Origin: a virus | IMG/VR virus record: IMGVR_UViG_3300045999_010887 | Location: 1 to 64,000 of that record | DNA: 64,000 nt | Reading direction: 5' to 3' (one strand) | Shown: piece by piece, positions 43,244 through 63,521 of the stretch | Layout of the letters: every line of letters begins with the position of its first letter | How positions within the stretch are numbered: position 1 is the first letter of the stretch | Notes under the pieces: generated by a model | Told to the model about the DNA's origin: nothing | The model's input: the letters and a program-made list of their open reading frames with translations, nothing else | The model's database searches: none | Translations under genes and position numbers: made by a program

Positions 43244-43271
43244 TGGTCAGTTTACCGTCATGACCAGGACG
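43244..43271 (-). ncRNA. Family A pseudoknot, copy 1
   Basis: CGTC-CTGGTCAT-GACG-GTAAAC-TGACCA. Confidence 0.7.
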
Positions 43272-43290
43272 CCCACACCCCCGTGGGACG

Positions 43291-44060
43291 TCAGTCTACC
43301 AGGTCTGTCAAGCTTTTAGTAGCAATGGTAACAAACTGATTGATGTAATCAGTCAAGGCTTCAACCTTAGCATTGACCACTTTGATCTCCTCCATCAACT
43401 CTTCCCTGGAAGGGCTCAAACCAAAGATGTCATTGTCTTTGAGTGCCTCTGGGTTGTTAGCTTTTTGATACATGCGGCAATCATTGTTGGTTGCATAGAC
43501 AGTTTCTTGATATATTTCAGAAACTGTTTTGAAATCAACATTGCCAACTCCCTCGGCTGAAAGGAGGTTGCAGGTATCAAGGTAAAGCCTGGCAGCAAAC
43601 CTGACATTGTCTTTGAAAAACTTCACATACTGTTCAGAAGGAAGTCCGTAGGTGTCAATCGACATAACAATCCAAAGCTTCTCGGAGTGCATTAATCATA
43701 AAGGTTTCTTGGCCTTCTGGACCAAGGTCAGTCCACCATTGAAGATCAGGATCGTTTTCGTCCCATTCAATATGAATGGTCATGGAACCATCCTCCTCAT
43801 CAATGCAATTAATTTGCAACTTGTTAATTGAACTGGGATTCAAGCCGATCGAGGCCAGATTCAACATGTCCAATAAGGATGTGTTCTGCATAGGTTTCGC
43901 AATCAGTTTTGATCTCTGCACCAAGCTTAACGAGACCCCAGTAGGTGTCTTCGTCAAGCTCTAGATCTAATTTGAATTTACCGTTTGAAAGCATCATTGT
44001 TTTTAAAGGTGGTTTTGCAATAAGCGATAACGCATACTCACGTAACTCGTCAGGCATCAT
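43291..44060 (-). CDS. Three small hypothetical ORFs
   Basis: 43291-~43668, 43655-~43870, 43824-~44060. Confidence 0.5.
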
Positions 44061-44998
44061 TGCTTTTTAAGTGCAGCCTTGAGTTGTGGCAGTGCAGTAC
44101 CAGGAAATGGAACGTAGCCCGCCTCCATCATATTGAAGAACAAATCCCATGCATCATGCTGCGTAAAGATTTCCTTAGGTTTGTAGGTACGCCAATGCGT
44201 CAGCGGAGCTTGTGCCCCTGAGTTGGTATATAACAATACAAAACGACCGTCACTAATGTGATCAACGGGTGGTGCATACCACCAGGCCACACACTTCTCA
44301 GGCGTACCACTGGGGCTGGCATTCCGTACATCAGTGCGCTTGCACAGCAGTTCCCTGTACTTGTTGAACCAAGTCAGGTGGATACACCAGGGCTTGAAGC
44401 CTTGGATCTCGGACGCAAAGTCAGATAGGTTGCTGAGCTGACGCTGATACGACCCACACGAACACCAAGGTTCACCCATGACAGGCTCGGACTGGTCAGC
44501 TTCCATGTCGCTGTCAAGGTCAATGGGCCGATTTGGAAGCCGCAATCCGTCTGGTGCAACCAGATGTCCAAGATCCGTTTGGTCGGACTGAAGGAGATGG
44601 AGGACTTTGTTGGTGTCTGATACATGTATAAATTTGTCAGCCCAATGCGCCTGGAGCTTTGCATTTGAGGTCAGGTGTCCGAGTGCATGCGTGTAGTTCC
44701 AGCCCTTAAAAAGAATGTAAGCATTGTTATGCCATACACTAGGGCCACGGTAATTGGGACCAAGGTAAGAAAAGAAGTCTTCGAGACGATTGGTGTAGGT
44801 TTGGAAATGAGCTTTGATTAATGTCCGTTCGTAGATTTGCTCAGTGCCATCATGACACACCACAACACAATGATCGCCTCGCAGATAAATGCCAGCGATT
44901 GCGGTGTCATCAAAGTCCGGGTAAGCACGCCGGATACTGGAACGAGAGTAGATAAGAGCCTGCGCCGAGTTGAGCTCGGTCTGCGCCTGGATCGACAT
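44057..44998 (-). CDS. SWIM Zn-finger protein
   Basis: WCSCGSY...WCIHL. Confidence 0.65.
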   Translation of the reverse strand: MSIQAQTELNSAQALIYSRSSIRRAYPDFDDTAIAGIYLRGDHCVVVCHDGTEQIYERTLIKAHFQTYTNRLEDFFSYLGPNYRGPSVWHNNAYILFKGWNYTHALGHLTSNAKLQAHWADKFIHVSDTNKVLHLLQSDQTDLGHLVAPDGLRLPNRPIDLDSDMEADQSEPVMGEPWCSCGSYQRQLSNLSDFASEIQGFKPWCIHLTWFNKYRELLCKRTDVRNASPSGTPEKCVAWWYAPPVDHISDGRFVLLYTNSGAQAPLTHWRTYKPKEIFTQHDAWDLFFNMMEAGYVPFPGTALPQLKAALKKQ

Positions 44999-45323
44999 GA
45001 AGTTGAGTTGGGTTGAGTGGGATTGGAATCAGACGTGCCAGAAGGACGTGTCCTCTTCTTTTTGATCCGACTTGATCTTAGCATTGGCCTTGGCGTGTTT
45101 GTACGCAGCCTTGCCCATGCGATAGGTGCCGTAAAGAACAGCAGCCCAGCACACGGGGTTCCCAATGATAGAGGCAACAACAGCACTAGCAGCAAATGTT
45201 GCTCCTGCTGTTTTGATTGCCGACTTTTCTTCAGGGTTCATGTCAGAGATTCTTAACACAAATGGAAAGTTGTGCGTAATAAATGTTTAAGTAAGTAGAC
45301 TTGTTGTAACAAATAAATACAAA

Positions 45324-45584
45324 ATGGACGAAATTAAATACGTACCTTTAACCAAATTTCAAATTGAACCAACGCTTGACGATAAATTCTGGGAAGAAAA
45401 AGTCAAACGTTCAATTCAAGATTGTAATTCAGTCAGTACATTAAAGGAAATAGCGATCCTCTTAGCGAGGATCGCTACCCAACGTCAAGGTGTGATTCGT
45501 GGGTTAGTTCAAGACATGTTCATCTTCAACAATGTTGCAGTTGAACCAGATGGCTTGACTAACCCTGACGTCACCTCACAGTGA
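45324..45584 (+). CDS. Second NblA-like protein (divergent)
   Basis: EPTLDDKFWEEKVKRSIQDCNSVSTLKEIAILL..., two-helix NblA-like pattern. Confidence 0.4.
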   Translation: MDEIKYVPLTKFQIEPTLDDKFWEEKVKRSIQDCNSVSTLKEIAILLARIATQRQGVIRGLVQDMFIFNNVAVEPDGLTNPDVTSQ

Positions 45585-46592
45585 ATCGTCTTCACCAGTT
45601 AGGGGATCACGAGAAGGCAGGGCCTTTACGTCAACCGCATCTGTGGTACGAGACACAGGCAGGATCTCGACGCCTTGCTTGATGCCATAGGCACCACCAA
45701 GCTTTTCAGCATCCTGACGTGCATGTTGATTGATGTAATCGCTGAACATTTCCTGGAACTTCCAGGTTGATTCACGATCTTCATCAGGAATCGACATGCG
45801 GCTCAGCGATTCGATGGCGGCATCTTGGTCGCTGTAATCAGGGATGTCAAAAGATTCAATTGCGCAGATCTCAACGTTGTTGGCTCCACGCATTTCGTTG
45901 GCAAGTACCGGAGCAAATACGGTAGTGGCGTAGAACTTTTCATTGAATGCAAGAGGCACTTCAGAATCCAGTGCCTTGCTCAGGCACTTAGACATTTCCT
46001 TCTCATACAGCTTGACCTTATCGGACACATCGGTGCCATTCAGACCTTTGAGGGTAAGGACCATCGGGATCTTGTGAGCACGCTTGTTGTCCTCAGTCAC
46101 GATGTAGATGAGGTACTTGGTGCGTACGCTGTACTTACGCTTGTACATTTCGCCCTTGCTGTTAGCAAGGTCGGCAGCAATCTTGTCGGCATCAAACAAT
46201 TCCTTGACCTCTGGATGCTCAAAGGTACCAATCGTTTGACGCATCCCTGTGGTTTCTTCAACCATCAAGGGAGAACGCAGCAGGATTTGAATGCGTGGCT
46301 CAGTGAAGTTCAGGCCTTCTTCAACAGAAGTGTTGGGTGCCATACCAAAGGTTTGCTTGTAATCCCAGATGACGGAACCTTTAGCAAACTGATCTTCGGT
46401 TGCAGTCCAACCACAGGTATCAAGATCTGATTTACGGATGAACCATCCGCGTACTTTTGACTTGTTGAGAGGTTGAATTGTGACGAGGTTCTGGTAGCCA
46501 GATACAAATTCTTTAGACTGGAACATCCGGAAGGAGTCAAGTCCGCGAGCAGCAAGCGCAGCAGTTTTCTTGGTGGTCATGGAAGAGGTCAT
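45576..46592 (-). CDS. Cyanobacterial DUF5895-like protein
   Basis: EEGLNFTEPRIQIL.RSPL, RTKYLIY...H.IPM.L..KG; next to SSB. Confidence 0.55.
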   Translation of the reverse strand: MTSSMTTKKTAALAARGLDSFRMFQSKEFVSGYQNLVTIQPLNKSKVRGWFIRKSDLDTCGWTATEDQFAKGSVIWDYKQTFGMAPNTSVEEGLNFTEPRIQILLRSPLMVEETTGMRQTIGTFEHPEVKELFDADKIAADLANSKGEMYKRKYSVRTKYLIYIVTEDNKRAHKIPMVLTLKGLNGTDVSDKVKLYEKEMSKCLSKALDSEVPLAFNEKFYATTVFAPVLANEMRGANNVEICAIESFDIPDYSDQDAAIESLSRMSIPDEDRESTWKFQEMFSDYINQHARQDAEKLGGAYGIKQGVEILPVSRTTDAVDVKALPSRDPLTGEDDSL

Positions 46593-46612
46593 GGTGTGTT
46601 CGTAGTCAGGAG

Positions 46613-46640
46613 TGAGCAGTTTAACGTCATGCTTAGGACG
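46613..46640 (-). ncRNA. Family A pseudoknot, copy 2
   Basis: CGTC-CTAAGCAT-GACG-TTAAAC-TGCTCA. Confidence 0.7.
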
Positions 46641-46645
46641 TGAGG

Positions 46646-46888
46646 CTATTCTGCTTTAGGTTTGTCCCATTCCATCACGTACTGCTGGGTACGTAATAAA
46701 TCGAAATATGCCGCAGAAGATTCTTTCATGCATTCATAAATAGTACTTTCCATGTAGCCACAACCCTTGAGGAAATCCACAACGTGGGTGACTACATCGT
46801 CAGCAACTAATGCTTTGAATTCATAAAGAAGTTTGGTGTTCTCATCCTCGTAAAGCAGGGTGAATTGATCGTGAGTTGGTGTTGACAT
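46646..46888 (-). CDS. Hypothetical protein
   Basis: FLKGCGY motif. Confidence 0.6.
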   Translation of the reverse strand: MSTPTHDQFTLLYEDENTKLLYEFKALVADDVVTHVVDFLKGCGYMESTIYECMKESSAAYFDLLRTQQYVMEWDKPKAE

Positions 46889-47703
46889 CAGAAGGGTACT
46901 TCGTCGAGTTCAGGTGCATTGCCGTAGTGACCAGGCAGATCAGGCAGTCCACCACCAGAGGCAGCGTTCCAAGGATCCGCTGGCTCCTCAGCAGTGCGGC
47001 CACCCCAAAGCGGTGCGACCTTATCGGAGTTAGCCACTACAGTCTGAGGGCGAATCGATTGATTGGCTGTGTCGCCTGTCACCTTTGGCGCCAAGGTCAT
47101 GGACACCAGTTGAATCTTGGTGACTTGACGGCGCTGATTACTTTCTTTATCTTGCCAGGCATCGGTGACTAGACGACCATTGATCGTTAAGCCTGTCCCT
47201 TTACGCGTGAAATCAAGTAAGAGCTGAGCATTGTTCAGCTTGTCTTGATGGGAATTAATAGCGTAAAAATTAAAGAGATCTGCTTGATTGCGTCCGGTAT
47301 TAACGGAAAGCGTTTGATTGCAGATCATCAGACCATCTGCCGTTGTCTTAAAGGCGCGTGTGTCATCCTGCTGGATGTCTTTAACGCAACGACCACTAAG
47401 AATGATTGTGTTTAGGATCGGAAACGATTCCGTGACCGTGGTAATGACGCCACCATGGAGCGAGTGGGTGCGTGTCTCCAGGTCATAGCGCAGCTTGGCG
47501 CCATGAATGTAGATCAACGAGTTCTTTGCAGTGCGTGCAAAACGCTCAGAGTTTTTGCCATAGACGTTGAGTTCAATTGGAGTTGCTGCCTTGTTACCAA
47601 CAGGTGGCAGCAAGACATTGCAACGCAGGGCGTAAGACGTTGCAGAGATGGATACCTCACGGGGTTCCTCTGTGGTTTGGGCACAGACAAAAGCTTGGTT
47701 CAT
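46888..47703 (-). CDS. ssb: Single-stranded DNA-binding protein (two OB folds)
   Basis: LSGRCVKD, KGTGLTINGRLVTDAWQDKE, acidic tail LDEVPF. Confidence 0.85.
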   Translation of the reverse strand: MNQAFVCAQTTEEPREVSISATSYALRCNVLLPPVGNKAATPIELNVYGKNSERFARTAKNSLIYIHGAKLRYDLETRTHSLHGGVITTVTESFPILNTIILSGRCVKDIQQDDTRAFKTTADGLMICNQTLSVNTGRNQADLFNFYAINSHQDKLNNAQLLLDFTRKGTGLTINGRLVTDAWQDKESNQRRQVTKIQLVSMTLAPKVTGDTANQSIRPQTVVANSDKVAPLWGGRTAEEPADPWNAASGGGLPDLPGHYGNAPELDEVPF

Positions 47704-47725
47704 GTGATGCCAAAAGGTTGTGTGA

Positions 47726-47755
47726 GAGGCAGTTTAACGTCTTACCTCAAGGACG
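47726..47755 (-). ncRNA. Family A pseudoknot, copy 3
   Basis: CGTC-CTTGAGGTAA-GACG-TTAAAC-TGCCTC. Confidence 0.7.
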
Positions 47756-48005
47756 AGAGATCAACTGGTTTATGTTTAACTTCAATCATTTCACCTTTTC
47801 GATTCCAACACTGACCACAATCAGGACACTGATAATGGTTAATACGGTCAGTGCCCAAATACTCCACACCAATAACACGACTAAAGAATTTAGATTCGGG
47901 TGAATAATAACCCTTGTCTATGGATTCTTGAGGGATGTAGGAGTGAATCCAGCTGACTTCGCAAACCGGGCACTGTTCTACTTTGGTGATGTCGAGGTAG
48001 TCCAT
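47742..48005 (-). CDS. Zn-ribbon protein
   Basis: CPVC...CPDC. Confidence 0.6.
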   Translation of the reverse strand: MDYLDITKVEQCPVCEVSWIHSYIPQESIDKGYYSPESKFFSRVIGVEYLGTDRINHYQCPDCGQCWNRKGEMIEVKHKPVDLSSLR

Positions 48006-49870
48006 CAGTGGGTCTGAGACCAGTCCGATCCTACCCTGGAATCACCTTCGATACTGCAGCGGAACCCAAAGAATTCCTGTGCCTGTGGGAAAGCAAGCAT
48101 GGCCTGCTCTCTGATGGCGTCTGTGTATTGAGGCTTGCACGCTAGTTGCACTTCATCATGAACCATCAATAGTTGTTGCCAGTCATGATCGTATTGCAAA
48201 CCAAGGTTTTGTTTGATGTTGTTGTGAATATTAATCACAACTTGTTTCATAAGGATTGCACCAGCTGATTGCAACAACACATTCAATCCTTTGAATGCGG
48301 AACGACAATACAACTGACGACGATCCAAACCAATCAGATAACCACGCAAACCAATAGTCTTATCAATCTCCAGCTTAAGAGCTTTCAATGCTGGGACACC
48401 ACGCATAAAACCATCGATGGCATTACGCCCAAGCATGCGCAGTTCATCTTCATCTTTGAGATTTGGATCAATGATTGAACCAGCCTTTACAGATCCACAG
48501 CCATAGAGCATGCCGTAAAGCAACCTCTTGCTGATGTCCCTGGTTTCTACGCCAAATTGCTTTTGGTTGTAGGTGTGGATGTCAACGGATTCATCGGTTA
48601 CCAGCCTTGCGTATTCACCGTTATCCCAGACGGCAAGGTATCCAGCAAGGCAACGTAATTCAAGTGCCTTAGCGTCAATGCCAATGAGATCCCACCCGTC
48701 AGGAGGAACGAACAAACTTCGACACTCTTTTCCGTAAGGTGAGTAACTGGCTGGGACCTGACCCATATTTGGATTGCGGTGTGCACAGCGCCCAGTAATG
48801 CAACCGTTAGTAATAAGATCGCCGTGGATACAACCAGTGTCATTGTTGTAGAGCTTGATCCAAGCATTGTTGCCATCAGCAATTTGACCAAGGCGCTTTT
48901 TGATCAGCATATACTCAGCCAAAGGTTTAGCCTCTGGGTATGGGAGTCGTTCTAATACTTCGTCATCAAGAACTGGATTTCCTTTCTCAGTTGTTTTCTC
49001 TGGAGTCCATCCGTACTTTTGGCGGAGTCGATCAGCAATCTGCTGACGAGATCCAGGATTGAACTCTTCATAGCTGACTTTAGTGAAAGGTTGTCCTTTG
49101 ACATAACCACGATTCTTGTTGTTTACTTTTGGAACAAATGTTGATTCATGTTTGATAGGTGGAAAGATTTGTTTTAGATGGGATTCAAGTTCTGTTTCCT
49201 TTGCTCTGAGATTATCCACCAAATCAAGAGCAGCATCCAAATCGAAAGGAACACCTGATCTAATTTGTTTGTTAATCGCCAAAGCAAAGTTGTGCTCCAA
49301 GAGAATGGAGGACTCTGGATAATTTTGCGCAGCGATAAGCTGCCAAAGATTGAAGGTGACTGCAACGTCTTGGATGCAGTAGTCCAACATCTCCTGCGAG
49401 TATTCCGTGAAGTCTTTGAAGTCAATCTTATGGTTGGCCAATCGCCATCCCCATGCCTTAAGCGATGGGGATCCACGTTGTGCCTTTGGAACTTCCGGAT
49501 ATTGTTCAATGTCAAGCTCATAGAGAACCTCCTTGGGCCAGATCAAACGTGAACAGATGAGGGTGTCAATGATGCGAGCGTTGGTCTTAAAGTCTGGAAA
49601 CAGTTTCTTTAAGACAGGGATGTCATAAAAGCAGATGTTGTGGCCAATAAGAACATCAGCGTTACGCAAATACTCAAGAGCAGTGTCAATGTTGTCAGGA
49701 CCAAAAGACAAAGTGCTTTGACTGTTGATGTCATAGATGACAACACAGTGAACTTTGGCGACTTTGTCATACAGTCCGTCTGACTCCAAATCAAAGACAT
49801 ACCATTTGTCATTTGCGGAACTGGGCTTCATCGCGAACTTCGAGTTCTTCACTGGCAAGGCTGCTGTCAT
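48005..49870 (-). CDS. polA: DNA polymerase family A (T7-like)
   Basis: FDLESDGL exonuclease motif, DAKALELR, RDISKRLLYGMLYG (Tyr at the 762-equivalent site), VHDEVQ. Confidence 0.95.
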   Translation of the reverse strand: MTAALPVKNSKFAMKPSSANDKWYVFDLESDGLYDKVAKVHCVVIYDINSQSTLSFGPDNIDTALEYLRNADVLIGHNICFYDIPVLKKLFPDFKTNARIIDTLICSRLIWPKEVLYELDIEQYPEVPKAQRGSPSLKAWGWRLANHKIDFKDFTEYSQEMLDYCIQDVAVTFNLWQLIAAQNYPESSILLEHNFALAINKQIRSGVPFDLDAALDLVDNLRAKETELESHLKQIFPPIKHESTFVPKVNNKNRGYVKGQPFTKVSYEEFNPGSRQQIADRLRQKYGWTPEKTTEKGNPVLDDEVLERLPYPEAKPLAEYMLIKKRLGQIADGNNAWIKLYNNDTGCIHGDLITNGCITGRCAHRNPNMGQVPASYSPYGKECRSLFVPPDGWDLIGIDAKALELRCLAGYLAVWDNGEYARLVTDESVDIHTYNQKQFGVETRDISKRLLYGMLYGCGSVKAGSIIDPNLKDEDELRMLGRNAIDGFMRGVPALKALKLEIDKTIGLRGYLIGLDRRQLYCRSAFKGLNVLLQSAGAILMKQVVINIHNNIKQNLGLQYDHDWQQLLMVHDEVQLACKPQYTDAIREQAMLAFPQAQEFFGFRCSIEGDSRVGSDWSQTH

Positions 49871-50042
49871 TTTTGTTAATCCACGTCAAGATCTGCTGAG
49901 CTCCAGCCCTGTATGGGTGGGAGAAGATCTTGTTCAGAGCTACCTCTGAATCTAACGGAATTAATTGGAATTGATTAGAAGTTTGACAGGCAGTAATGGC
50001 AAATGGCTTACCGTTTTTCCAGGTAGCAATGACGTAAGACAT
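49809..50042 (-). CDS. Hypothetical protein
   Basis: First ORF after the TTGACG-16-TAGTAT promoter (50064-50091). Confidence 0.55.
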   Translation of the reverse strand: MSYVIATWKNGKPFAITACQTSNQFQLIPLDSEVALNKIFSHPYRAGAQQILTWINKNDSSLASEELEVRDEAQFRK

Positions 50043-50097
50043 AAAGGAATGAAAGACGGACAGATACTATCCGATCTTTCATTCCCGTCAAGGTTCT

Positions 50098-50571
50098 TCA
50101 GTTTGTCTTCTGTTTTGATTTGCGGAAACCAAGACGTTCGTGATGCGCCACTGTTGCCTTATCACAACCAAAGCGCTTCGCAATCTGATCGCGGCTCATG
50201 CCGGAGACTCTGAGTTGTTTCATTTTGTCAAGATCCTCTTGGCTAAACCGTGTTTGCTTTGGTCGAAAACGTCCTCTTTGCATCTTGTCATTTACGTTGT
50301 CTTGGTTTGTTCCAAGTAGAAGATGAAGTGGATTGCAACAAGATGGATTGTCGCATGTGTGCCGTACTTGTAAAGCGTTGTAGATAACAACACCATGATG
50401 ATGCTGATAACTCCAACGATGAGCAAGCATTGTTTTGTTATCTATAGATGATTGGCCATAGCCTTTTGGATTCCTAAATCCAAGCCAAGGCCAACAAGCT
50501 TCATGACCCCCGGAGGGGTCAATCTGCTTTAAGAACGTTAATGAGTTATTTGGTGTTCTGCCTCTAGGCAT
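50098..50571 (-). CDS. HNH homing endonuclease
   Basis: CWPWLG..GYG..AHRWSY..VRHTCDNPSCCNPLHL..GT.QDN. Confidence 0.88.
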   Translation of the reverse strand: MPRGRTPNNSLTFLKQIDPSGGHEACWPWLGFRNPKGYGQSSIDNKTMLAHRWSYQHHHGVVIYNALQVRHTCDNPSCCNPLHLLLGTNQDNVNDKMQRGRFRPKQTRFSQEDLDKMKQLRVSGMSRDQIAKRFGCDKATVAHHERLGFRKSKQKTN

Positions 50572-51337
50572 GAGATTGATTTTTACGTTTGGAACTATAG
50601 CCCACAAATCCCCCTTCCTTCTTGCGTTGAGAAAGCGCCTTGCTTGCGTCGGATCCAGCCCGCTGGGAGCCATGAACCAACAGTGCGAAGGGCTTGTCAC
50701 CTAAGCAATGGCTGTCGTCGTGATCGATCTCCAGACCACGCTCTGCTGCCTCAGCTTCTGTGTAGACCACATAAGCGATGCGCTGAAACACATGCGGATA
50801 TTTCGGGATGAGGTAGTCAAGTGTCCCACCGAACGATGCGGTGAGGTAGAAGTTGGGTGGGATCTGATCCCGTAGGTTAATCCACATACCAAGAGACTTG
50901 GTGTAGCTGTAGAACTTTTGCCTGGGCCTCTCGCGAGCAACCATCATCCAAGCCTTCATGTAGTTCTCAGTCCAGTAGTCACCACTCTCATGGACACGAA
51001 CAAGTTCCTTGGGTGGCTGCATCAAAAGGGACATGTCAATCAGATCACGGAGGAGTGTGACCTGATTGCCGTTCATGTGGATGGTTTCACGCAACAGATC
51101 CCAGTTGTGCCAACGCGCTTCACGCACGGTGGGCCTGGTCTCCGCCATGGCAGCAAAACAACGGTACTCATCTGCTTCTGTGCCTGTGAACTGAGGCAGG
51201 TCACGGATCTGACCAGTGACACGATCAGCCATGGTTTTGCAAACACCAGCATGTGGACATGAATAGCCCGCTGGGATATTGAAGATGAGTCGGTTCTTAA
51301 GCTTGCCGTTACCGGTAGAAAATTTCAGGAGCTTCAT
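50564..51337 (-). CDS. GP88-like protein
   Basis: FNIPAGYSCP..C...CFA, RVHESGD, FYSYTKS. Confidence 0.7.
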   Translation of the reverse strand: MKLLKFSTGNGKLKNRLIFNIPAGYSCPHAGVCKTMADRVTGQIRDLPQFTGTEADEYRCFAAMAETRPTVREARWHNWDLLRETIHMNGNQVTLLRDLIDMSLLMQPPKELVRVHESGDYWTENYMKAWMMVARERPRQKFYSYTKSLGMWINLRDQIPPNFYLTASFGGTLDYLIPKYPHVFQRIAYVVYTEAEAAERGLEIDHDDSHCLGDKPFALLVHGSQRAGSDASKALSQRKKEGGFVGYSSKRKNQSHA

Positions 51338-51370
51338 GGTTGTGTTGAATTGATTGATAAGAAAAACTAA

Positions 51371-51398
51371 TGAGTAGTTTAAGGACGTGCTCAGGTCC
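51371..51398 (-). ncRNA. Family A pseudoknot, copy 4
   Basis: GGAC-CTGAGCAC-GTCC-TTAAAC-TACTCA. Confidence 0.65.
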
Positions 51399-51417
51399 AT
51401 CTTCCCGTTCGGGATTA

Positions 51418-54490: not shown

Positions 54491-54519
54491 AAGAAAAGAC
54501 CCCTGCATGTGCAGGGGCC
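54491..54519 (-). terminator. Intrinsic terminator
   Basis: CCCCTGCA-CA-TGCAGGGG then TCTTTTCTT. Confidence 0.7.
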
Positions 54520-54900: not shown

Positions 54901-54921
54901 GATGTTGTGTTGAGTGTAGGT

Positions 54922-55008
54922 TGGTGCAGACGGCGGGAGTCGAACCCGCAAGGGCAAATGCCCGACGCATTTTAAGTGCGTTACGTATACCTATTCCGTC
55001 ACGTCTGC
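54922..55008 (-). tRNA. tRNA-Leu(UAA), intron-less, CCA encoded
   Basis: Acceptor GCAGACG/CGTCTGC, anticodon ACGCA-CTTAAAA-TGCGT, long variable arm, GGTTCGACTCC. Confidence 0.95.
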
Positions 55009-55218
55009 ATCACTTGGACTTACACTCACATCAATTGATGTGTGATGCCAAGTGTGATCATGAGGTAACGGCTCAGTGCCGTAGTCCCATGTATCATAGT
55101 CATCCTCGTTACGAGGATCCTTATCGATCAGGATGTACTGAGGTGAGTTATCTGTGATGTACTCACCAATGTTTGCCATTGCCATGGCAAGCAATTGATC
55201 ATCAGTGTAATCGGGCAT
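54991..55218 (-). CDS. Small acidic protein
   Basis: Reads through element B into the tRNA D arm. Confidence 0.5.
   Translation of the reverse strand: MPDYTDDQLLAMAMANIGEYITDNSPQYILIDKDPRNEDDYDTWDYGTEPLPHDHTWHHTSIDVSVSPSDADVTE
55011..55054 (-). ncRNA. Family B element, copy 1
   Basis: CACTTGG-CAT-[stem]-TGTAAGT-CCAAGTG, 2 nt before the tRNA. Confidence 0.7.
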
Positions 55219-55267
55219 GAGTTAAAGGGCATCCATATAACGAGGATAGGATGCCCCTGCTGTGGCC

Positions 55268-56992
55268 TTAGCTTTCAGATCTTAGCTGTTTCTCACGAGA
55301 TTGCAAGGCCTGCTTGAAGGCAAGTGCGTACTCTTCCCTTTGCTCCTCGTTCAGTCGCTGGTTGGCTACGCCAGCAATCTGCTTGACGTTCATGACACCC
55401 ATGGATACATCCAGTTGAATGGTGAAGGTTGGCCTACCATCAATCATGCAAAGCACAATGAAGTGCTTACGTTTCTTGATGTCTTCTGCATACTGGGACG
55501 CAGAGCCCACACAGTTGCGGACTGCTTGTCCCCACTGTGCAAGTTGATGCGTATCAATGGGTTGCAGGAATGTCCAGCTATGGCCATTCATCTCTACATG
55601 CACAGGTGCAGGGAATAGATCCTGGTGCAGTGACTCCTTCTTGTTCTGAATCTTCCATGCCTCTGCTTGCACATAGTCATGGAAGTCAGGCATGCGCCAA
55701 CGCTTTGGTGGCTCAAGTGTTTTACCTGCCTCAAGGATACGCATGATCATTGAGAAGGTATCGTTCATCTCATACCATGAATGAACAAAATAGTTGTAAT
55801 CAGAATGGATTAAAGAACGAGCTGACGCAGACTTCTCTTCATTAGATTTTTCAGAATACTTACGCATCATATTGAGGAACGATGTAACACTCATGTGCTC
55901 ACGTAGCCAAACAATGAGTTCATCACTGGTACGCAAGTGATTGAGATTGACTTGACGTAACTCAGCAAAGTATGTACGGTAATGATCAAGCGGACAGTCG
56001 GGCCATACTCGATTGATAAAGTAGATTGAATTAGTCGTCTGCTCAAATTCTTTGTAACCATACTTAATTGCTTTACGCAATTCGTTATCAACATTGTTGT
56101 ACTGTTCAACAGAGCGATCAAGCATTGTTTGCAAACGCTTCTTGATAAATGGAGTTGTAATGATGTGCTGAATATCGTTGATGGTTAGATAGGTTAAAGA
56201 TGTGTAATTATTCTTAGCTGTCCATGCATTAGCAAGGTCAACTATATTGTCAACCGTTAACTTGAATACTGAACGATCTTCGATGCAGTTTGTTAATGCA
56301 AATGGAAACTCAAGTGCATCAAGAAGGTTATTACATTTGATGCGATCAAACATGGAATGACTGTCGTTCCATGTTGGGATAGTTTCCATCAAAGTTGACT
56401 CAAAACTATTGATTGCATCATTCATATCACGTGACTTCTGGTAGTAACTAGCAATACCCATGGCACGCCAATTACGTGCATCATTACCTGCAATGATGTC
56501 TTGCTTAGTTATGGTACGTGAGTACGTAAAGGTTTGCGCGCCACGTGTACTGGCGTGTTCGGTGCAACGATCTTTAGTATTCCAGATATGACGAGGTAGT
56601 ACCTTAGCTGCAGCTGCAGTGTTCTTGAATGCATAGGCATAGCCATAGATGTAGTCCTCACCTTTGGCAGGTAGCCATGCGGCATACCAGCATTGCTCAA
56701 AGTGATAGAGGATTGCAATGGTAATTGTACGTGCTTGTGGTGTGGCAACATCAACCACCTTGGTAAAGCGATGGTAACGTTCTGATACACCTGACGAATT
56801 GATACGATCAATTGCATCTTGTTGATAGCTACCACGCACCACATTCTCAGGGATGAGATGTGGGATATTACCCAATGGATATTTAGCTTTCTTTGTAGTC
56901 TTCTTGGGTTCCTGTTCTTTGACCAAAGCCTTAAGCTTTGGATCATAAGCCAAGAGTTCTTGTTGCAGGCAAGAGGGAATTTGGAAGTGCAT
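55268..56992 (-). CDS. PcfJ-domain protein
   Basis: FHDY...L..WGQAVRNCVGS..Y...FTIQL...VKQI.G.AN. Confidence 0.75.
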   Translation of the reverse strand: MHFQIPSCLQQELLAYDPKLKALVKEQEPKKTTKKAKYPLGNIPHLIPENVVRGSYQQDAIDRINSSGVSERYHRFTKVVDVATPQARTITIAILYHFEQCWYAAWLPAKGEDYIYGYAYAFKNTAAAAKVLPRHIWNTKDRCTEHASTRGAQTFTYSRTITKQDIIAGNDARNWRAMGIASYYQKSRDMNDAINSFESTLMETIPTWNDSHSMFDRIKCNNLLDALEFPFALTNCIEDRSVFKLTVDNIVDLANAWTAKNNYTSLTYLTINDIQHIITTPFIKKRLQTMLDRSVEQYNNVDNELRKAIKYGYKEFEQTTNSIYFINRVWPDCPLDHYRTYFAELRQVNLNHLRTSDELIVWLREHMSVTSFLNMMRKYSEKSNEEKSASARSLIHSDYNYFVHSWYEMNDTFSMIMRILEAGKTLEPPKRWRMPDFHDYVQAEAWKIQNKKESLHQDLFPAPVHVEMNGHSWTFLQPIDTHQLAQWGQAVRNCVGSASQYAEDIKKRKHFIVLCMIDGRPTFTIQLDVSMGVMNVKQIAGVANQRLNEEQREEYALAFKQALQSREKQLRSES

Positions 56993-57022
56993 GAGTTGAA
57001 TTGATTGAGTAGGTACTGAAAA

Positions 57023-57054
57023 GCCTGGGACTTACACCTTACGGATGCCCAGGC
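57023..57054 (-). ncRNA. Family B element, copy 2
   Basis: GCCTGGG-CAT-CC-GTAA-GG-TGTAAGT-CCCAGGC. Confidence 0.75.
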
Positions 57055-57067
57055 ATGATGTCAAACG

Positions 57068-57495
57068 TTAGTCAAGTTCGACCAGTTGCCACTGAGGATC
57101 GAGCTGATCAAGATAGGCGCAGAAGCCATCTTCATCAAGAGGAAATGGTTCCTCTGGATCCAGCTCGACAGTTGTTGTACACAATGCAGGAGCCCACTCT
57201 TCAGGGTCGAGGCGAGTCGCCCGATAGAGCAGGCGCATTTCGTCAACAACTGCTGTAACTGTGACATGAGTATCAGTGAAATGAGTGTCTTCAATGGCTA
57301 AGACTGTCATCAGTTGTCCTCGATGTAGGAACAGTTGGTGGTTTTGATGAGGCGGTACTTCATCCACAGACGTGCTGTGTCGTACTCGCCATTGAAGCGT
57401 GCTTCATCTAACACATTTGAATTCGCCCTGCGCTGTGCACAGGCAGCAAGATTAATGCGATCAAACATGTTGATGTAGTCTGTGTATGTAGCCAT
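57068..57495 (-). CDS. Two small ORFs (57068-57310, 57310-57495)
   Basis: TGATG coupling. Confidence 0.55.
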
Positions 57496-57527
57496 GAATT
57501 GAAATGAGTTGAGGTAATGGACAAAAG

Positions 57528-57555
57528 CTGGGACTTACACCTTACGGATGCCCAG
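57528..57555 (-). ncRNA. Family B element, copy 3
   Basis: CTGGG-CAT-CC-GTAA-GG-TGTAAGT-CCCAG. Confidence 0.75.
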
Positions 57556-57559
57556 ATCT

Positions 57560-57969
57560 TTAGATTATCTTAATGTTTGATTTGCTCAAACCTGTGCCTG
57601 GGATACTGATTGATCCACGCACACCAGACTCACGTGCATTGAGTGTGAGTTGGAACGGTCCAAGCTGAAACGATTTGCTATAGGATTGAATACCATTTTC
57701 TGTGATATTGAATCCAGCAATGGTCTTATCAAAGCTGATTGGTGATTTGTCTTTAGTCATTTCAAGTTCTCGGGCATTAGTTGATTGATGTCATCTTCAT
57801 CTTCAAAATTTGTCATTACAAACTTTTGTCCATCGGGGGCAACAAAGCCCCCGATAAAACCAATACCGTATTTGTCTGCTGATTCTTTCATCTTGGCTAC
57901 AAGCTGCATAGCTTGAAGTCTTTGAAGATCAATTGAATCAGGAATACGAGGAGTGTTGGAACTAGACAT
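57560..57969 (-). CDS. Two small ORFs (57560-57760 DUF4236-like; 57757-57969)
   Basis: GVRGSISIPGTGLS in the first. Confidence 0.5.
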
Positions 57970-58107
57970 TGGTGTTGAGTTGATTGGTGGTCTAGAAGAC
58001 TTGGGTAGTCTACCAGGGTTGTCAAGGGATGGTAAAGGGGGAATACATAATAGTTTCTTATAGAACTAAAGGTATCCCCCTGGTACTTCCCCAGGGGTTG
58101 TAGGGGA

Positions 58108-58554
58108 CTACGAATGCATAGCCTGGTGCTCCTGCCAAGCAGCTGCGTGCATTTCTGCTGCAGTGATTGGAGGTTCACCTGGTTCGTTCGGAGTTGGGTC
58201 GTAGTCGAGTTCTTCTTCCAGCATGGAGATCATTTCTTCGACTAGACCCTTGGCATGTGGTGTAAGGTGTTCATCCATTTCATGGCGCTTGCTCTCGCGA
58301 GCTTGCACATTCTTTAAGATGGAGTGAACTTCTGCAAGGTAGTAATACTCGTTCTGTTGTGCGTAATACATCCGTAATAATGCTTGAATTTCAGATGCAA
58401 CCTTGGGGCCAGCTTGATGAAGTGATTGAATGCGGTACAAACCAAAGTCCAAGATCGCTTGAATAGTTTGTAGTTGTGCACGCATCAAAATGTTCCTCGC
58501 CCTGGTACCAAGGCAAGGACAATCAAGCACTGATGTTTCTGGTTTTAAATGCAT
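58108..58554 (-). CDS. Protein with an RNA polymerase alpha-CTD-like domain
   Basis: LGTRARNILMRAQLQTIQAIL....IQSLHQAGPKVASEI. Confidence 0.6.
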   Translation of the reverse strand: MHLKPETSVLDCPCLGTRARNILMRAQLQTIQAILDFGLYRIQSLHQAGPKVASEIQALLRMYYAQQNEYYYLAEVHSILKNVQARESKRHEMDEHLTPHAKGLVEEMISMLEEELDYDPTPNEPGEPPITAAEMHAAAWQEHQAMHS

Positions 58555-58582
58555 GGTTGGTTTGGAGTTAAGGTTGGATTAA

Positions 58583-58624
58583 AGCCTGGGACTTACACCA
58601 CATTGTTATGTGGACGCCCAGGCT
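58583..58624 (-). ncRNA. Family B element, copy 4
   Basis: AGCCTGGG-CGT-CCACAT-AACA-ATGTGG-TGTAAGT-CCCAGGCT. Confidence 0.75.
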
Positions 58625-58687
58625 ATGACTGAAGTATTGGCATGTATTGGCACTTTGTACGTGCCACCCAATACTACGGTATAACGA

Positions 58688-59595
58688 TTACGTTGTCTTA
58701 GGTTCGAGCATGATCCAGCCTGTGTAGTTAGCACTGCTGCGATCAATGGTTACTAAGCCGTGTTCCTCCAGTCTTGTCAATGCTGTGAGGTATTGATCAA
58801 GCCTAGAGTTTTGGACGGGACACCTTGGTACGTAACACGGTGTGTTCTTGTACTTCTTCCTGTGGTTCAGGTAGTACAAGTAGATGTTCCGTTGATTGAT
58901 GCTCAATCCGACTGGCGGTGTCAGCGTTGATGTTGCCGTTGTCATCAGCAGTAATGTGGAGTTGATTCGGGGTAGACAGTAGCGTATCCGTTGGAGAAGT
59001 TGACTTCGTAGTTGTGGTACGTCGTCGAGAGACCGAGGCTTGGCTGGTCTGCGACTTCGTACTCGTCGAAGTATTGGATGAAGGCTTGGACCGCTTGCTT
59101 CTTGGAGAAGACACAGTGGGTGAGGACTGGGAGTCCTGCTTGGTACCACCATCCGCCTTCTTCTGGACCGCCGTAGTGGAGCGTCGTTTCGTGGACGGTG
59201 ACAGTCGTTGGGTCTTCATGCTCCCACTGTTGGTGGGTTGTGTATCGCTGGATGGCAAAACGTGCTTTCCAGGAGTTGGGGTAGAACTTTTGGAGTTCAG
59301 AGATGTAAGACATTTGATTGCATCAATGAAAGTTGTGATGAGAATTGAAATGATGACAATGATGTGAACAACAATGTCATCTTCGTGTTGCTTAGGCTTG
59401 GTCATCGTAAAGCTCCTGTTCTTGGTTAGGTGTATTAGTCACAGAGAAACCGACGAATTGTCCGTCGATTTCAATGAGTGACCATTCGGATTGATCAGCT
59501 TCACGCATGGCTTCTTCTAGTTCGTATGCACGATCAGCCATTGCGTCAAGCAAGTCTGCATTGCGCTGCTCATCAATGAAGCTAAAATCTTTCAT
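58688..59595 (-). CDS. Small ORFs (58688-58945, 58945-59313, 59392-59595)
   Basis: Coupled ORFs; YGGPEEGGWWY motif in 58945-59313. Confidence 0.55.
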
Positions 59596-59623
59596 GGTTT
59601 GAGTTGAATAAATGAACAGTTGT

Positions 59624-59675
59624 CCTGGGACTTACACCACTTATTGAGAAGAGTTCTCAAGAGTGGAGGCCCAGG
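59624..59675 (-). ncRNA. Family B element, copy 5
   Basis: CCTGGG-CCT-CCACT..AGTGG-TGTAAGT-CCCAGG. Confidence 0.75.
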
Positions 59676-59685
59676 TGATGTGTGA

Positions 59686-60192
59686 TTAGGCTTTGATGTC
59701 GCTCCAAGCAATACCGCGAGCGATATTACTGATTGCGCAGCCTGTCACGTTGTAACGGCGACCAATAGCTTGGTACGCCTGAGTTTTGCTTGTCCACCCA
59801 CCCATGTACTTCTCATCGTTGATGAGCAGTTTGATTTCACGTACTTGGCTGGGTGTAAGCTTAGGTACAGGACCGCGATAACGTAGATGTGTAGTACCAG
59901 AAGCACCAACAGGTTTGAACTGTGTTGTGGTCTTGGTCTCTTTCCTATCACGTTCTGCAAGTTCCTTTAGATAAGCCAAGCCCTGTTCCTTGGACATGAC
60001 AGGACCATTCATCCGTCCCCGTGACGGTTGCATGGGGGGTTGAGGGGGTGTCTCGATCCATGGACTGCGGATAGGAAAGCCAAGCGTTACTGACGTTCCA
60101 TCCTTGAGGATGGAGATGGTGACCTTACCATCCCTTGTAATCACAGAGACGTGATCGGGGGCGGTCACATCGAGTTGGCTGAGCGCGTCCAT
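59686..60192 (-). CDS. Protein with a C-terminal HTH
   Basis: KLTPSQVREIK...AIGRRYNVTGCAISNIARG..W. Confidence 0.65.
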   Translation of the reverse strand: MDALSQLDVTAPDHVSVITRDGKVTISILKDGTSVTLGFPIRSPWIETPPQPPMQPSRGRMNGPVMSKEQGLAYLKELAERDRKETKTTTQFKPVGASGTTHLRYRGPVPKLTPSQVREIKLLINDEKYMGGWTSKTQAYQAIGRRYNVTGCAISNIARGIAWSDIKA

Positions 60193-60330
60193 GAGTGATG
60201 TACTGGAGTTTGAGTGGACTGTTGGGTGAGCTGCCCCTGCCTTGCAGGATGCAGGTAGAGAATAGCTGGTACGTACAGAGATGCAAGTACCAGCCGTAGC
60301 GCTTTGCGTTTGCGGGACACCAGATGTAGG

Positions 60331-61019
60331 TTAGTCGTGTGGGATAAAGTCCGAGTCGTTGAGTAGCTGATGAACTGACAAGCAGTCTTCAGCGATCTCA
60401 TCTCTGGTGCAACCTTCCCATTCGATGGACTGGTCTTCAATGACTTCACAGCCAGCATCTTCGAGCTGGTCGTGGAATTGAGACCAAGTACGTGCGTTGC
60501 CCCAGACATGGGCATAACGACCGGAATGATCAGCGACTAGTGCGATGTGGAGTGCCATTGTTCTGTTGAGTAGGGTTGGAGTTGATGTTAGTGATGTCAA
60601 TGCCGATCAGTGCAGGCACTGTGAATGCGGCAATGATGAGGGCAAAGAGAGCAATGCCGTACGACCAAAGTTGATTTGAGCGAGTCTCAGTAGACTCACC
60701 ATAAGAATCAAGGATGATGTACTTGCCTTTGCCCATGGAATAGATGGTCTTCATCTTAGATCGTGGCAAGAATGTAACGGACGCAAACCAGATGATCTGG
60801 CTTGAAACCAGGCGGTAGTTCTTCTGCGTAGAACCACTCGCCCTTGACATCAAGCGAGACGCATTCGCTGTTTCGTGCAAAGCCAAGAGCTTTATCACCC
60901 TTGGTGCACCAAACAATGTAGACGCATGCGTCCATGCAAAGGATGTAATAATCATCCTGCTTGATATCAAACGTTTCAAGTGCGTCTTGAATGTCTGAAT
61001 GATCAAATGTAATTGGCAT
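60331..61019 (-). CDS. Small ORFs (60331-60558, 60530-~60736 membrane, 60756-61019)
   Basis: ORF track. Confidence 0.5.
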
Positions 61020-61103
61020 AGTGTTGTATGCAATGGATGCAGGGAAAACCCTGCAGAAAACCCACTCATCACAAGGATGAGAAGGGTTAAGTGCAGAGGT
61101 CAG
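61020..61103 (-). ncRNA. Family D switch element, copy 1
   Basis: CTCTGCA..hairpin..TGCAGGG-TTTT-CCCTGCA. Confidence 0.55.
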
Positions 61104-61510
61104 TTAACGTACTTACTGTTGATGCAGTAATACGTATCACCAAGGAATCCCTTGGTGTAGATCAGGTTGTGCCCTGGTTGGTTATGGCATGTGTTCTTGT
61201 AATGCTCATTGAGCATCTTCTGTCCACAGACGGACAGGATCATGCCAATACCAGTGCCAACAACGATGGCGATAACAGAGTCAGCCAGATGATTGTTAGT
61301 CATGATTCAGATGTCTTTCTTGGGAGTGATAACAAATGCCATGTCATCAGGCATCATGAGTGCAGCAGCACGACAACGAATGTCATGCAGCTTCTCTGAT
61401 GCATTAACCGATTGACATGTCTTGGTAGCAACCTTTGCTGTAGTCTTGGTTGCAGTTACTACCCAAGGCAGGAATTCACGTACGTTCTTCCTGAAATTAA
61501 GTGCAGTCAT
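61100..61510 (-). CDS. Two 67-aa ORFs
   Basis: 61100-61303 (TM helix) and 61307-61510. Confidence 0.55.
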
Positions 61511-61583
61511 GGCATTGAGTTGAGTGGAAGCAGGATATAGAATCCTGCAGTAAAGGGCCGAAGCCCCTTAGAGCAGGAATCAG
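61511..61583 (-). ncRNA. Family D switch element, copy 2
   Basis: TCCTGC..GGGC-TTCG-GCCC..GCAGGA-TTCTATA-TCCTGC. Confidence 0.55.
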
Positions 61584-63213
61584 AAGATCGTTGCGTAAAG
61601 ATTGTCGAGGTGCATCGTGGTAATGTACTGATAGTAATCAGACATTGCAGCTAATAACTCCTTGGTACCAGCAGGAATACCGTTACCAAGAGTTTGTACC
61701 TCACGTTCAATCCAACAAGGATTGCCATAGCAGTCATCAACTTCTACTTCATAACGAAGCATAGTTGATTCACCGCCATGCCAAGTGATACGCTCGGTTG
61801 CACCTTCGTAAGGGTAGTAGCACAGCATAGTGTTGTGTTGAGTAGATGCCACGGGATTGTGGCAAGTGTTGTGTGGGGGATTTGATCCCCCGGCATCACG
61901 CCTGGTCAGAAGACCATCACAACGTCGTCGGCCTCCATCATCTCCTCGAAGGACATGATGCGCACGTCATGCGTGCCTTGTATGCCGTTGTTAAGTTCGG
62001 GTGCATTGAGCTCGAAGTCGCATTGAGCTGCTTCGATTAGCGCCTCTTCCCACTGGAAGGAAACGCCATGTTGCACGCCGTCAATCACAATGAAGTACAT
62101 GGTGTTGAGTTAAGTAGATGCCACGAGATTGTGGCAAGTCTGAACCAGGGGATTGCACCCTGGAACGCCGCTTAAACGGACTCAGATAGCGTAACCGTTG
62201 GTGATGCACCAGTTACGGTGAAGCGTGTCATGCTCCTTCGGCCAGTCATGTGTAATGCACTGGTGAGCCGTTGCCTTGTCCACAAAATGGATGACGACTT
62301 GGCTACCAATGCCCATGATGGAAGCAGCAATGAGCACGCAGGATGCAATACGTTGAGTCATGATTGCGTTGAGTAGATGCCACGGGATTGTGGCAAGTCT
62401 GATGCCGGGAATTGAACCCGGCTGCGCACCAGCTATCAGAAAGGATGATAGTCGACTACCAGAAGATCTTGCTCCCAATCCTCAAAGGATTGGAAGTATT
62501 CAAGAGCTTCTTGCTCGTTGTCAAACACCTTCTCACATCCCTGGAAGTAGGCGTCTTCGAATGTGTAGTCAGCGTAAACAGCAAAAGGATTACGCTTAAC
62601 TTGAACGGAGTAATACATGTTGAGTTGAGTAGATGCCACGGGATTGTGGCAATAACTGGACCAGGGTTTGCACCTGGTCACCCGCTTTAACGGATCAGCT
62701 AACTTCGTAAATTGCCCATGACATTGAGTCATAAACCTTCCTGGCGATTTCGCCATTCGGATCGTTAACCTCAATGAAACGGTCAACTATTTCAGCCATG
62801 CAGATTTCATGGCTGACCATTCTCTGACAACAATCTTCAATTGCTGCCTCACGAAGTGAGATCAGCACTTCAAGAGTGTGCGCAAGAGCTTGGTCCACAG
62901 GATTCTCCTGTTGTGTGGTGCCCATCTCCACAGGGGGCAATAACTGTGGGAGGGTTTGCACCTCCCAACCCGCTTTAACGGATCAGTTGTTCTCCAGCAT
63001 CTCGTCCACGTAGGACTTGATAACCTGGAGGTGTTCGGCAGTAAGTACCTGGCTACGGCCATACTCAAGCAGGTCAAGGACCTGGAGCATGACTTGATCG
63101 CCAGCTTCCTGCCGGGTCGGTACGCCACACATATCGAAGATCTCTTCGCATGACATCTCAGTGATGTCAACGCAGTCGATCTGACGAACGGTGGCGATGG
63201 TGGTGTTGGTCAC
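61580..63213 (-). CDS. Six small ORFs of the array (61580-61828, 61906-62100, 62182-62361, 62436-62618, 62695-62898, 62983-63213)
   Basis: 59-82 aa, unrelated to each other, mostly acidic. Each start directly follows an element. Confidence 0.65.
61829..62986 (-). repeat. Array of five family C tRNA-like elements alternating with small ORFs
   Basis: Elements at 61829-61926, 62101-62186, 62362-62440, 62619-62701 and 62919-62988. Shared TTGCCACAATCCCGTGGCATCTACT in four copies (one substitution in the 62101 copy). Confidence 0.85.
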
Positions 63214-63228
63214 GGTGTACTCCGGTAG

Positions 63229-63262
63229 CTTGGACTTACACCACTGAAGTGTGGATGCCAAG
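63229..63262 (-). ncRNA. Family B element, copy 6
   Basis: CTTGG-CAT-CCAC-ACTTCA-GTGG-TGTAAGT-CCAAG. Confidence 0.75.
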
Positions 63263-63293
63263 AACACCTGGTGACCTACCACCTGAGTTGTCT

Positions 63294-63318
63294 GCTACGT
63301 TTAACGTCCAGCTCGACG
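63294..63318 (-). ncRNA. Family A pseudoknot, copy 5
   Basis: CGTC-GAGCTG-GACG-TTAAAC-GTAGC. Confidence 0.6.
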
Positions 63319-63521
63319 ATTACACTGCTTAAATCCCGACCTTTAACATCGGGATTAACCAAGTCTTGTATTACTCACTGTCCTATTTGGCCCGTGGGGG
63401 AGCGTAGCGCCACATCCAACCGAAATGTCAGGAAATGTTGACAATTGAGAGGATAATGAGTGGAAGACTCACTAAATGAGGGCTATATAAACCCCTGGTC
63501 GCCCAGGGGAAGAGATAACCG

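Follow-up and report, generated by a model that had tools for sequence, protein, structure and literature searches.

The stretch of DNA analysed here, referred to as the window, comprises positions 1 to 64,000 (64,000 nucleotides) of the virus record IMGVR_UViG_3300045999_010887, an 80,654-bp IMG/VR record that is rated complete. The family A DNA polymerase shares 68% identity with the enzyme of Synechococcus phage S-EIV1 and less than 60% with those in all other phage records; judged from sequence, the virus is an S-EIV1-like cyanophage. Between about 63.5 and 42.4 kb almost every gene is on the minus strand, and this leftward arm encodes small unnamed open reading frames (ORFs), a PcfJ-like protein, tRNA-Leu, ThyX, a Gp88-like protein, an HNH endonuclease, the DNA polymerase, SSB and a DUF5895 protein. 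Many of the junctions between these genes carry compact RNA modules of four families: T+H (a mimic of the top half of a tRNA followed by a hairpin), K (a hairpin), P (a pseudoknot) and D (stop-proximal hairpins). Between 43 and 63.5 kb we confirmed 17 such elements (five T+H, six K, four P and two D) in addition to tRNA-Leu (Table 1). Megablast of the region against phage records gave no match.

The minus-strand junctions were inspected and the elements were then tested on related contigs, with covariance models built on relatives for T+H (model R1) and K (model R2), a structural scan for counting P, and blastn for finding relatives of D. Each of the four families is also found in S-EIV1 and in dozens of related IMG/VR contigs, where the stems keep pairing by way of compensatory changes. 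This covariation supports the proposal made in the first-pass annotation that the elements are sense-strand structured RNAs under selection. That annotation listed 18 elements of four families, named C, B, A and D (T+H, K, P and D here), plus one tRNA; a fifth copy of P was not found by the structural scan of the window, which returned four. The claimed placement on the coding strand holds throughout, all elements being on the minus strand, and the claimed occupancy of many junctions is borne out by roughly 14-15 element-bearing junctions among about 25 of at least 25 nt. The suggested order along the transcript (T+H, D, K, then P) holds only roughly, as P and then K are present at the very first junction (63318-63227). 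Each module is placed, as described earlier, between an upstream stop codon and a C/A-rich leader; these leaders contain 3-8.5% G and about 65-70% C+A, lack a Shine-Dalgarno sequence and have a mean length of 17-28 nt, the mean distance to the start codon being about 28 nt for K, about 25 nt for P and about 17 nt for H.

Table 1. RNA modules and other features of the leftward arm (window coordinates; R1 and R2, covariance models; MFE, minimum free energy; Ha, UGCCAC-AAUCCC-GUGGCA).
Feature	Position	Strand	Evidence
P-a (S1 CGUC/GACG, S2 GCUG/UAGC, linker UUAAAC), head of leftward operon	63288..63318	-	structural scan
K1	63227..63264	-	R2 47.7 bits
T1, mimic + variant hairpin Hb (UGCCC...GGGCA)	62918..62990	-	R1 62.5 bits, E 8e-12; MFE fold z -2.2
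T2, mimic + Ha	62633..62702	-	R1 94 bits; fold z -4.8
T3, mimic (T-loop UUCAAUU) + Ha	62377..62442	-	R1 54.4 bits; sub-threshold Rfam mascRNA 18.7 bits
T4, mimic + Ha	62118..62188	-	R1 81.8 bits
T5, four-way cloverleaf-like mimic + Ha	61846..61921	-	R1 36.7 bits; sub-threshold Rfam tRNA 18 bits; fold z -3.9
D1: UGA, CCUGC, UUCG-capped hairpin, GCAGGA, UCCUGC	61528..61583	-	blastn relatives, fold
D2: same layout, other sequences	61036..61102	-	junction reading, fold
K2	59623..59676	-	R2 46.6 bits
K3	58584..58623	-	R2 46.7 bits
TTGACA-N7-TAGACT, candidate extended -10 promoter, not RNA module	58007..58025	-	motif match
K4, minimal form, GUAA-capped P2	57526..57557	-	R2 44 bits
K5, before PcfJ-like gene (P pseudoknot there in six relatives)	57023..57054	-	R2 45.2 bits
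K6, ends 2 nt 5' of tRNA-Leu	55011..55054	-	R2 38.1 bits
tRNA-Leu(UAA), encoded CCA, then directly C/A-rich leader + ATG	54922..55008	-	ARAGORN, Rfam
Ordinary terminator-like hairpin with U-tract inside operon, contrast to modules	54498..54519	-	consensus scan
P-b, before SSB gene	47724..47755	-	structural scan, covariation
P-c, before DUF5895 gene	46611..46640	-	structural scan, covariation
Second exact TTGACA-N7-TAGACT, just upstream of P-d	43293..43311	-	motif match
P-d, before Gp157-like gene	43242..43271	-	structural scan, covariation

The T part of T+H is made up of an acceptor-like stem of 5-6 bp, a small hairpin (often CCG-UUAAAG-CGG) and a T-arm-like hairpin, in that order. The 5' strand of the acceptor-like stem holds the stop codon of the upstream gene, usually as CUGA; in T1 the UGA stop lies within this strand as well. 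Hairpin H, UGCCAC-AAUCCC-GUGGCA, begins 2 nt past the mimic and is followed in relatives by a leader with a mean of 17 nt. Searched with the covariance model, the window yields five copies (E 1e-18 to 3e-6; the next match has E 0.07), which span 62990-61846 on the minus strand, and S-EIV1 yields two, with covariation of H (UACCAC.../...GUGGUUA). Across 52 related loci the model gives 132 matches, 97 of them distinct. The linker between T and H measures 2 nt in 91 of these 97 copies, and an exact 19-mer of H is present in 41 IMG/VR contigs. With the structure set by hand, 24 copies were 97% paired, as compared to 34-39% when the partners were slid; for the 97 distinct copies 95.8% of the cells are paired against 35-50% with slid partners, and compensatory changes occur in 17 of 21 pairs. 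G-U pairs outnumber A-C combinations by 44 to 11, which argues for folding of the sense strand.

The T-loop is tRNA-like in most respects: it has 7 nt in 92 of the 97 copies, with U54 in 90%, C56 in 99%, and R57 and A58 in 100%, and its closing pair, equivalent to G53-C61 of tRNA, is G-C in 94 of 97. Position 55 is G in 79% and thereby departs from the consensus GGTTCRANYCC. In copies that were inspected visually, acceptor and T stem together measure 11-12 bp. T is not a canonical tRNA, as ARAGORN reports only tRNA-Pro and tRNA-Leu and the best T scores 18 bits against RF00005 (cut-off 29). The closest likeness is to the t-elements of plant mitochondria, tRNA-like elements that direct cleavage of mRNAs by RNase Z/P (PMC1920247). 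Similar to these, T has an acceptor-like stem stacked on a conserved T arm with a tRNA-type T-loop in an otherwise non-canonical tRNA-like fold, and lies in long transcripts near mRNA ends; some t-elements, like T, also reach into the end of the preceding reading frame, and true tRNAs are used alike in the mitochondrial tRNA-punctuation model (PMC1920247). Unlike the t-elements, T, which is known here from sequence alone, occurs in a phage of a bacterial host, in arrays of 3-7, without D or anticodon arm, with mostly G at position 55 and with an obligatory hairpin 2 nt downstream.

K consists of a stem P1, the trinucleotide CAU, a distal stem-loop P2, an invariant UGUAAGU and the returning strand P1', with CAU and UGUAAGU facing each other as an internal loop. 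The model gives six copies in the window (E 5e-11 to 3e-8; next match E 0.37). P1 is CUGGG/CCCAG and covaries to CUAGG/CCUAG, CUUGG/CCAAG and CAUGGG/CCCAUG, while P2, which separates the conserved halves, can be as short as 4 nt or as long as about 45 nt, the minimal K measuring 32 nt. Among 45 copies 91.8% of the positions are paired, with compensatory changes in 8 of 10 pairs, and the start codon follows after 15-32 nt, mostly 28-30. Several further ideas about K were discarded. Pairing of its GUAAGU with the leader to form a pseudoknot is too weak, with perfect complements in 22% of K leaders against 9±4% in shuffled ones. In cellular genomes 12 pattern matches were found where about 30 are expected by chance (own arithmetic), scoring 18-33 bits as compared to 38-48 for true copies, and were treated as chance; matches to the 14-mer GGTGTAAGTCCCAG in viral contigs were mostly due to chance too. 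The 5' half of K (CUGGGCAUCCGUAAGG in minimal copies) resembles the Syn5 promoter ATTGGGCACCCGTAAGGG, but a promoter of that type was rejected, since the polymerase gene was not found (PF00940) and both K stems covary. Upstream of K3, at about 58640-58690 on the minus strand, we noted a 12-bp two-part hairpin (GUAUUGG..GGCAC / GUGCC..AAUAC) whose surrounding CCAAUAC repeats are conserved in relatives.

A K-like hairpin is found 2-3 nt 5' of tRNA-Leu in all seven distinct genomes that have this tRNA, despite differing acceptor sequences, and K is therefore not simply a translation signal. The tRNA-Leu(UAA) itself is kept across the lineage (the window and the related loci L018, L025, L149, L153, L160 and L051) although its acceptor-stem sequences are quite different. 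CCA is encoded in six of the seven genomes, the copy in L153 ending in GGCA, and the gene is always followed by a C/A-rich leader with a start codon about 20-25 nt downstream. In the window a 75-codon ORF (54991-55218, minus strand) reads through K6 and has its stop codon inside the tRNA, so that cleavage at the tRNA 5' end would leave this ORF without a stop.

P is an H-type pseudoknot in which a first stem S1 (NGUC/GACN) is followed by one C, a second stem S2 of 4-7 bp pairs the loop (8-10 nt) with the tail, and UUAAAC serves as the linker; the minimal form has 28 nt. The 22 copies are 94.5% paired (90.9% in S2, with compensatory changes in 5 of 6 pairs). Both stems covary and the outer S1 pair takes all four Watson-Crick types. 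GUC, GAC and UAAA are invariant, and a U follows in at least 90%. A copy lies upstream of the SSB gene both here and in S-EIV1. The general form is NGUCC-(7 nt)-GACNUUAAACU, also written NGUCC-loop-GACNUUAAAC-U, and 15 of 20 positions are colinear and identical with coremin, GUCCGAAGACGUUAAACUAC (PMC10520033).

Coremin (xrRNA-C, an exonuclease-resistant RNA; PMC6546385, PMC10520033) and P share the GUC/GAC first stem, the loop-opening C and the GACGUUAAAC(U) core, giving GUCC...GACGUUAAAC as the common core. The first hairpin of 3-5 bp and the spacer GUUAAACUAC of coremin are present in P, the last spacer positions being different, and as coremin lies upstream of the RNA it protects, P lies upstream of RNA that would be protected. 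In the Watson-Crick variant of coremin (xrRNA-WCC), which resists the exonuclease Xrn1, the first loop is paired to the bases that directly follow UUAAAC, and longer loops can still confer resistance (PMC10321173); P has the same antiparallel loop-to-tail pairing directly after UUAAAC. Unlike coremin, P has no YGAD tetraloop and no separate downstream hairpin hp2, its loop pairing with the tail instead, and its second stem has 4-7 rather than 3 bp. Coremin is from plant and other RNA viruses, whereas P, likened to it by sequence and fold, belongs to a DNA phage of a bacterium without Xrn1; the coremin papers cited here do not mention a phage or a bacterium. Another H-type pseudoknot, the autoregulatory one in the leader of T4 gene 32 (PMC10690425), compared here by description, occurs in an SSB gene leader as do P-b and its S-EIV1 counterpart, but P is also present before unrelated genes and the first early gene.

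D is a stop-proximal element whose UUCG-capped hairpin covaries. Its GCAGGA pairs either with CCUGC just past the stop codon or with a downstream UCCUGC, and the variation fits both pairings and is decisive for neither. Many relatives have D1-type elements by blastn, some contigs carrying two of them in unrelated surroundings. As a side observation, every family has UAA, often as UAAG, within conserved segments that are unpaired or form a loop. K has it in UGUAAGU, P in UUAAAC, T in the UNUAAG of its mini-hairpin loop and D in CUCUAAGG. This UAA could be a shared recognition motif or could provide out-of-frame stop codons.

The modules are interchangeable and mark the places where genes are exchanged. 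The PcfJ-like gene, preceded by K in the window, is preceded by P in six relatives including S-EIV1, and a second gene follows K in one relative but P in S-EIV1; in the related locus L147 the gene that lies after D1 here follows T/H. Since the families swap before orthologous genes, they appear functionally equivalent at the 5' side of a gene. Among 46 non-redundant T/H junctions one downstream gene follows up to five different upstream genes, and six of seven upstream and seven of nine downstream gene clusters that were seen more than once have more than one partner. T/H junctions are thus joints of gene-cassette shuffling, and the earlier suggestion that breakpoints of gene gain and loss fall in the elements agrees with the gene orders observed. 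Layout and spacing of the modules are kept from S-EIV1 to this phage despite the divergence of their DNA polymerases.

The elements are no ordinary promoters or terminators, in agreement with the first-pass annotation: a consensus scan found a sigma-70 promoter or a same-strand terminator in none of them, and the sole terminator-like match that touches an element (61847-61864, within hairpin H of T5) is on the opposite strand. Normal terminator-like hairpins with a U-tract are found elsewhere in the arm, at 63509, 54519 and 45480. A different motif, TTGACA-N7-TAGACT, has two exact copies in the window, each at a gene junction, and one copy each in S-EIV1 (L001 15986-16004), L144, L149 and L051; its TGnTAGACT reads as a candidate extended -10 promoter. 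The possibility of matches in Rfam, left open earlier, was settled by Rfam 15, in which only the two tRNAs reach the gathering score and nothing relevant appears at E values up to 10.

Among the systems considered for comparison, the PeSL (promoter early stem-loop) cassettes of T4-type phages are likewise short intergenic motifs that are conserved and border small, variable early genes at joints of insertion, deletion and replacement (PMC2839356, PMC4122927), and the T/H junctions are such joints of gene gain, loss and replacement. Unlike PeSLs, which combine a sigma-70 early promoter with a terminator stem-loop and form one family, the modules have no promoter consensus, have a tRNA mimic, an internal-loop hairpin or a pseudoknot instead of the terminator hairpin, and fall into four families. 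The RNase III sites of T7 are also intercistronic structures in a polycistronic early transcript, but RNase III needs a duplex of roughly 20 bp and the module stems have 4-8 bp. The module folds are unlike those of integron attC arrays, and no integron integrase was present among the part of the ORFs that was scanned for domains. Full-text searches of the literature returned no phage description of such elements, which may nevertheless be included in a survey of 10,006 unnamed viral RNA candidates (PMC10690425). The earlier statement that the modules have no known analogue still applies to K; it no longer does to P, with its likeness to coremin (PMC10520033, PMC10321173), or to T, which resembles the t-elements (PMC1920247). 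New in this work are the coremin core and topology of P, the position of K just before tRNA-Leu, the mutual replacement of K and P, and the shuffling joints at T/H.

As interpretation we propose that the modules serve in RNA processing and protection at cistron boundaries, punctuating messages made by the host polymerase, and act in addition as recombination joints; we assign this a probability of about 0.5. A search for the T7-like RNA polymerase domain (PF00940) gave zero matches in the 80.6-kb genome, although the control genomes of the same search were also silent, which leaves its absence unproven; the arm is thus presumably transcribed by the host polymerase. Pfam named no RNA-processing enzyme among the operon ORFs tested. 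Two public sequencing runs considered as a source of transcript ends are probably DNA and consist of contigs; contig joints and loose ends that fall at elements (58612, 62104/62630, 62648 and others) may reflect breaks of the assembly in repeats and were left out of account. The modules are compact, end before a weakly pairing G-poor leader and can be replaced by each other or by a tRNA, so that the simplest common job would be to mark and protect cistron boundaries. The sequences show the structures, with their conservation, placement and interchangeability, and the shuffling. By analogy with known systems the modules probably cut up and shield long viral messages; we infer every enzymatic step from such analogies and from the layout.

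Host polymerase would make long leftward early and middle messages whose cistron boundaries are punctuated by the modules. T, a copy of the acceptor/T-arm half, would recruit host nucleases acting on tRNA ends, most likely RNase Z and possibly RNase P, since it fits the minimal substrate of the tRNA 3' and 5' nucleases as the t-elements do (PMC1920247). A cut after the discriminator of T would leave one free base before H and a new 5' end that is base-paired. Paired in this way, a monophosphate end would be hidden from the 5'-end-dependent RNases E and J. P, as a Watson-Crick pseudoknotted relative of coremin, would halt 5'-to-3' decay, for which cyanobacteria have RNase J, directly ahead of the next cistron, and K may have the equivalent task at boundaries, as it takes the place of P in front of orthologous genes and always adjoins tRNA-Leu. 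D may switch its fold on arrival of a ribosome at the stop codon. Sharing sequence as they do, the modules would also provide the joints at which homologous recombination shuffles small gene cassettes. An RNase P cut at T or tRNA-Leu might shut off the upstream genes, or may not occur.

Several points weigh against this proposal. RNase P cleavage at T would strip the stop codon from the upstream gene, so that only cleavage on the 3' side fits simply. Resistance of coremin was assayed against eukaryotic Xrn1 only, and P is without the tetraloop and the second hairpin. K has no known analogue; it shows no excess of G-U over A-C (9 vs 12), and its strand of action is fixed solely by its constant orientation. 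The invariant single-stranded UGUAAGU, UUAAAC and the AAUCCC loop would also fit binding by a specific protein.

The last point leads to the explanation that the modules are translational operators, each family binding a phage or host RNA-binding protein that switches a temporal class of genes, as do gp32 at its leader pseudoknot or RegA in T4. The invariant motifs, a fairly constant distance to the start codon within each family, the presence of P before the SSB gene in both phages and the arrangement of the families by position along the operon would agree with this, but translation is irrelevant for K before a tRNA gene, K and P swap before the same gene, the modules sequester neither start codon nor leader, and Pfam named no RNA-binding regulator among the ORFs tested. 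We consider operators unlikely. Signals acting as DNA, that is promoter and/or leaky-terminator cassettes similar to PeSLs and read by host polymerase or an unrecognised phage factor, appear less probable. That each element precedes a gene or tRNA, the Syn5-like half of K, the U-rich runs after some K copies and the location at shuffling joints can all be cited for them. Compensatory changes in a tRNA-like three-way junction and a pseudoknot are, however, meaningless for duplex DNA, the spacing of the K halves is too variable, a separate promoter-like motif (TTGACA-N7-TAGACT) exists elsewhere, and neither the consensus scan nor the PF00940 search, with the limit given above, provided the required partners; ordinary terminators in the arm look different.

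The combinatorial partners at the T/H joints, the duplicated D with unrelated flanks and the identical 19 nt of H in so many contigs raise the question whether the modules are for the most part selfish or neutral linkers for recombination, portable repeats carried along by cassettes, with a structure kept only as insulation. We regard this as improbable, since conservation of the T-loop residues specific to tRNA and of the coremin core goes far beyond the needs of folding, and layout and spacing have outlasted considerable divergence of the polymerases. It is very improbable that the modules are small self-cleaving ribozymes releasing each cistron. Compact conserved folds with invariant unpaired bases, the contact of K with a tRNA 5' end and a similarity of P to the hairpin, pseudoknot and A-rich linker part of pistol could suggest this, but no ribozyme family, including pistol, matches the modules at E values up to 10. 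The sole ribozyme match (Hammerhead_1, 18.5 bits, E 2.9) is on the opposite strand inside the DNA polymerase gene, and minimal K and P both lack the additional helices and the loop at the cleavage site that known classes have.

If processing and protection at cistron boundaries is correct, a bacterial virus would be using the tRNA-punctuation logic known from mitochondria, and an exonuclease-blocking knot known only from RNA viruses of eukaryotes would extend to prokaryotes and RNase J. A wider and more tentative view is that the S-EIV1 lineage has a modular, 'structure-capped' mRNA in which T passes the early message on to host tRNA nucleases, coremin-type knots and K block RNase J ahead of each cistron as exonuclease-resistant RNAs of a bacterial virus, and the same portable modules drive shuffling. 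The modules also explain the exchange of small early genes in a widespread lineage of freshwater phages. The clear Watson-Crick pseudoknot of P and its natural covariation could help to settle the still unsolved coremin fold, and the modules may find use in cyanobacterial polycistronic constructs as compact insulators or stabilisers. With S-EIV1 and its Synechococcus host in culture, the system can be tested directly.

Some neighbouring genes were noted as well. An HNH homing-endonuclease ORF with a helix-turn-helix tail (50098-50700, minus strand) lies between the Gp88-like and DNA polymerase genes, and just upstream of the latter an unannotated small ORF (MSYVI..., about 49871-50050, minus strand) is kept in S-EIV1 (L001 8566-8790), where the stretch is annotated as intergenic. 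Sugar-nucleotide genes for a glycosyltransferase, a GDP-mannose 4,6-dehydratase and a DegT-type aminotransferase are found at 25330-34110 of the window. Beyond the window, a 1040-aa ORF (G000 64462-67584, plus strand; L166 462-3584) points away from the early operon. It was considered as a hidden polymerase and rejected, having no Pfam or PHROG match; the product is A-, Q- and P-rich and of low complexity, has a hydrophobic segment at the N-terminus, and is probably a virion or injected protein.

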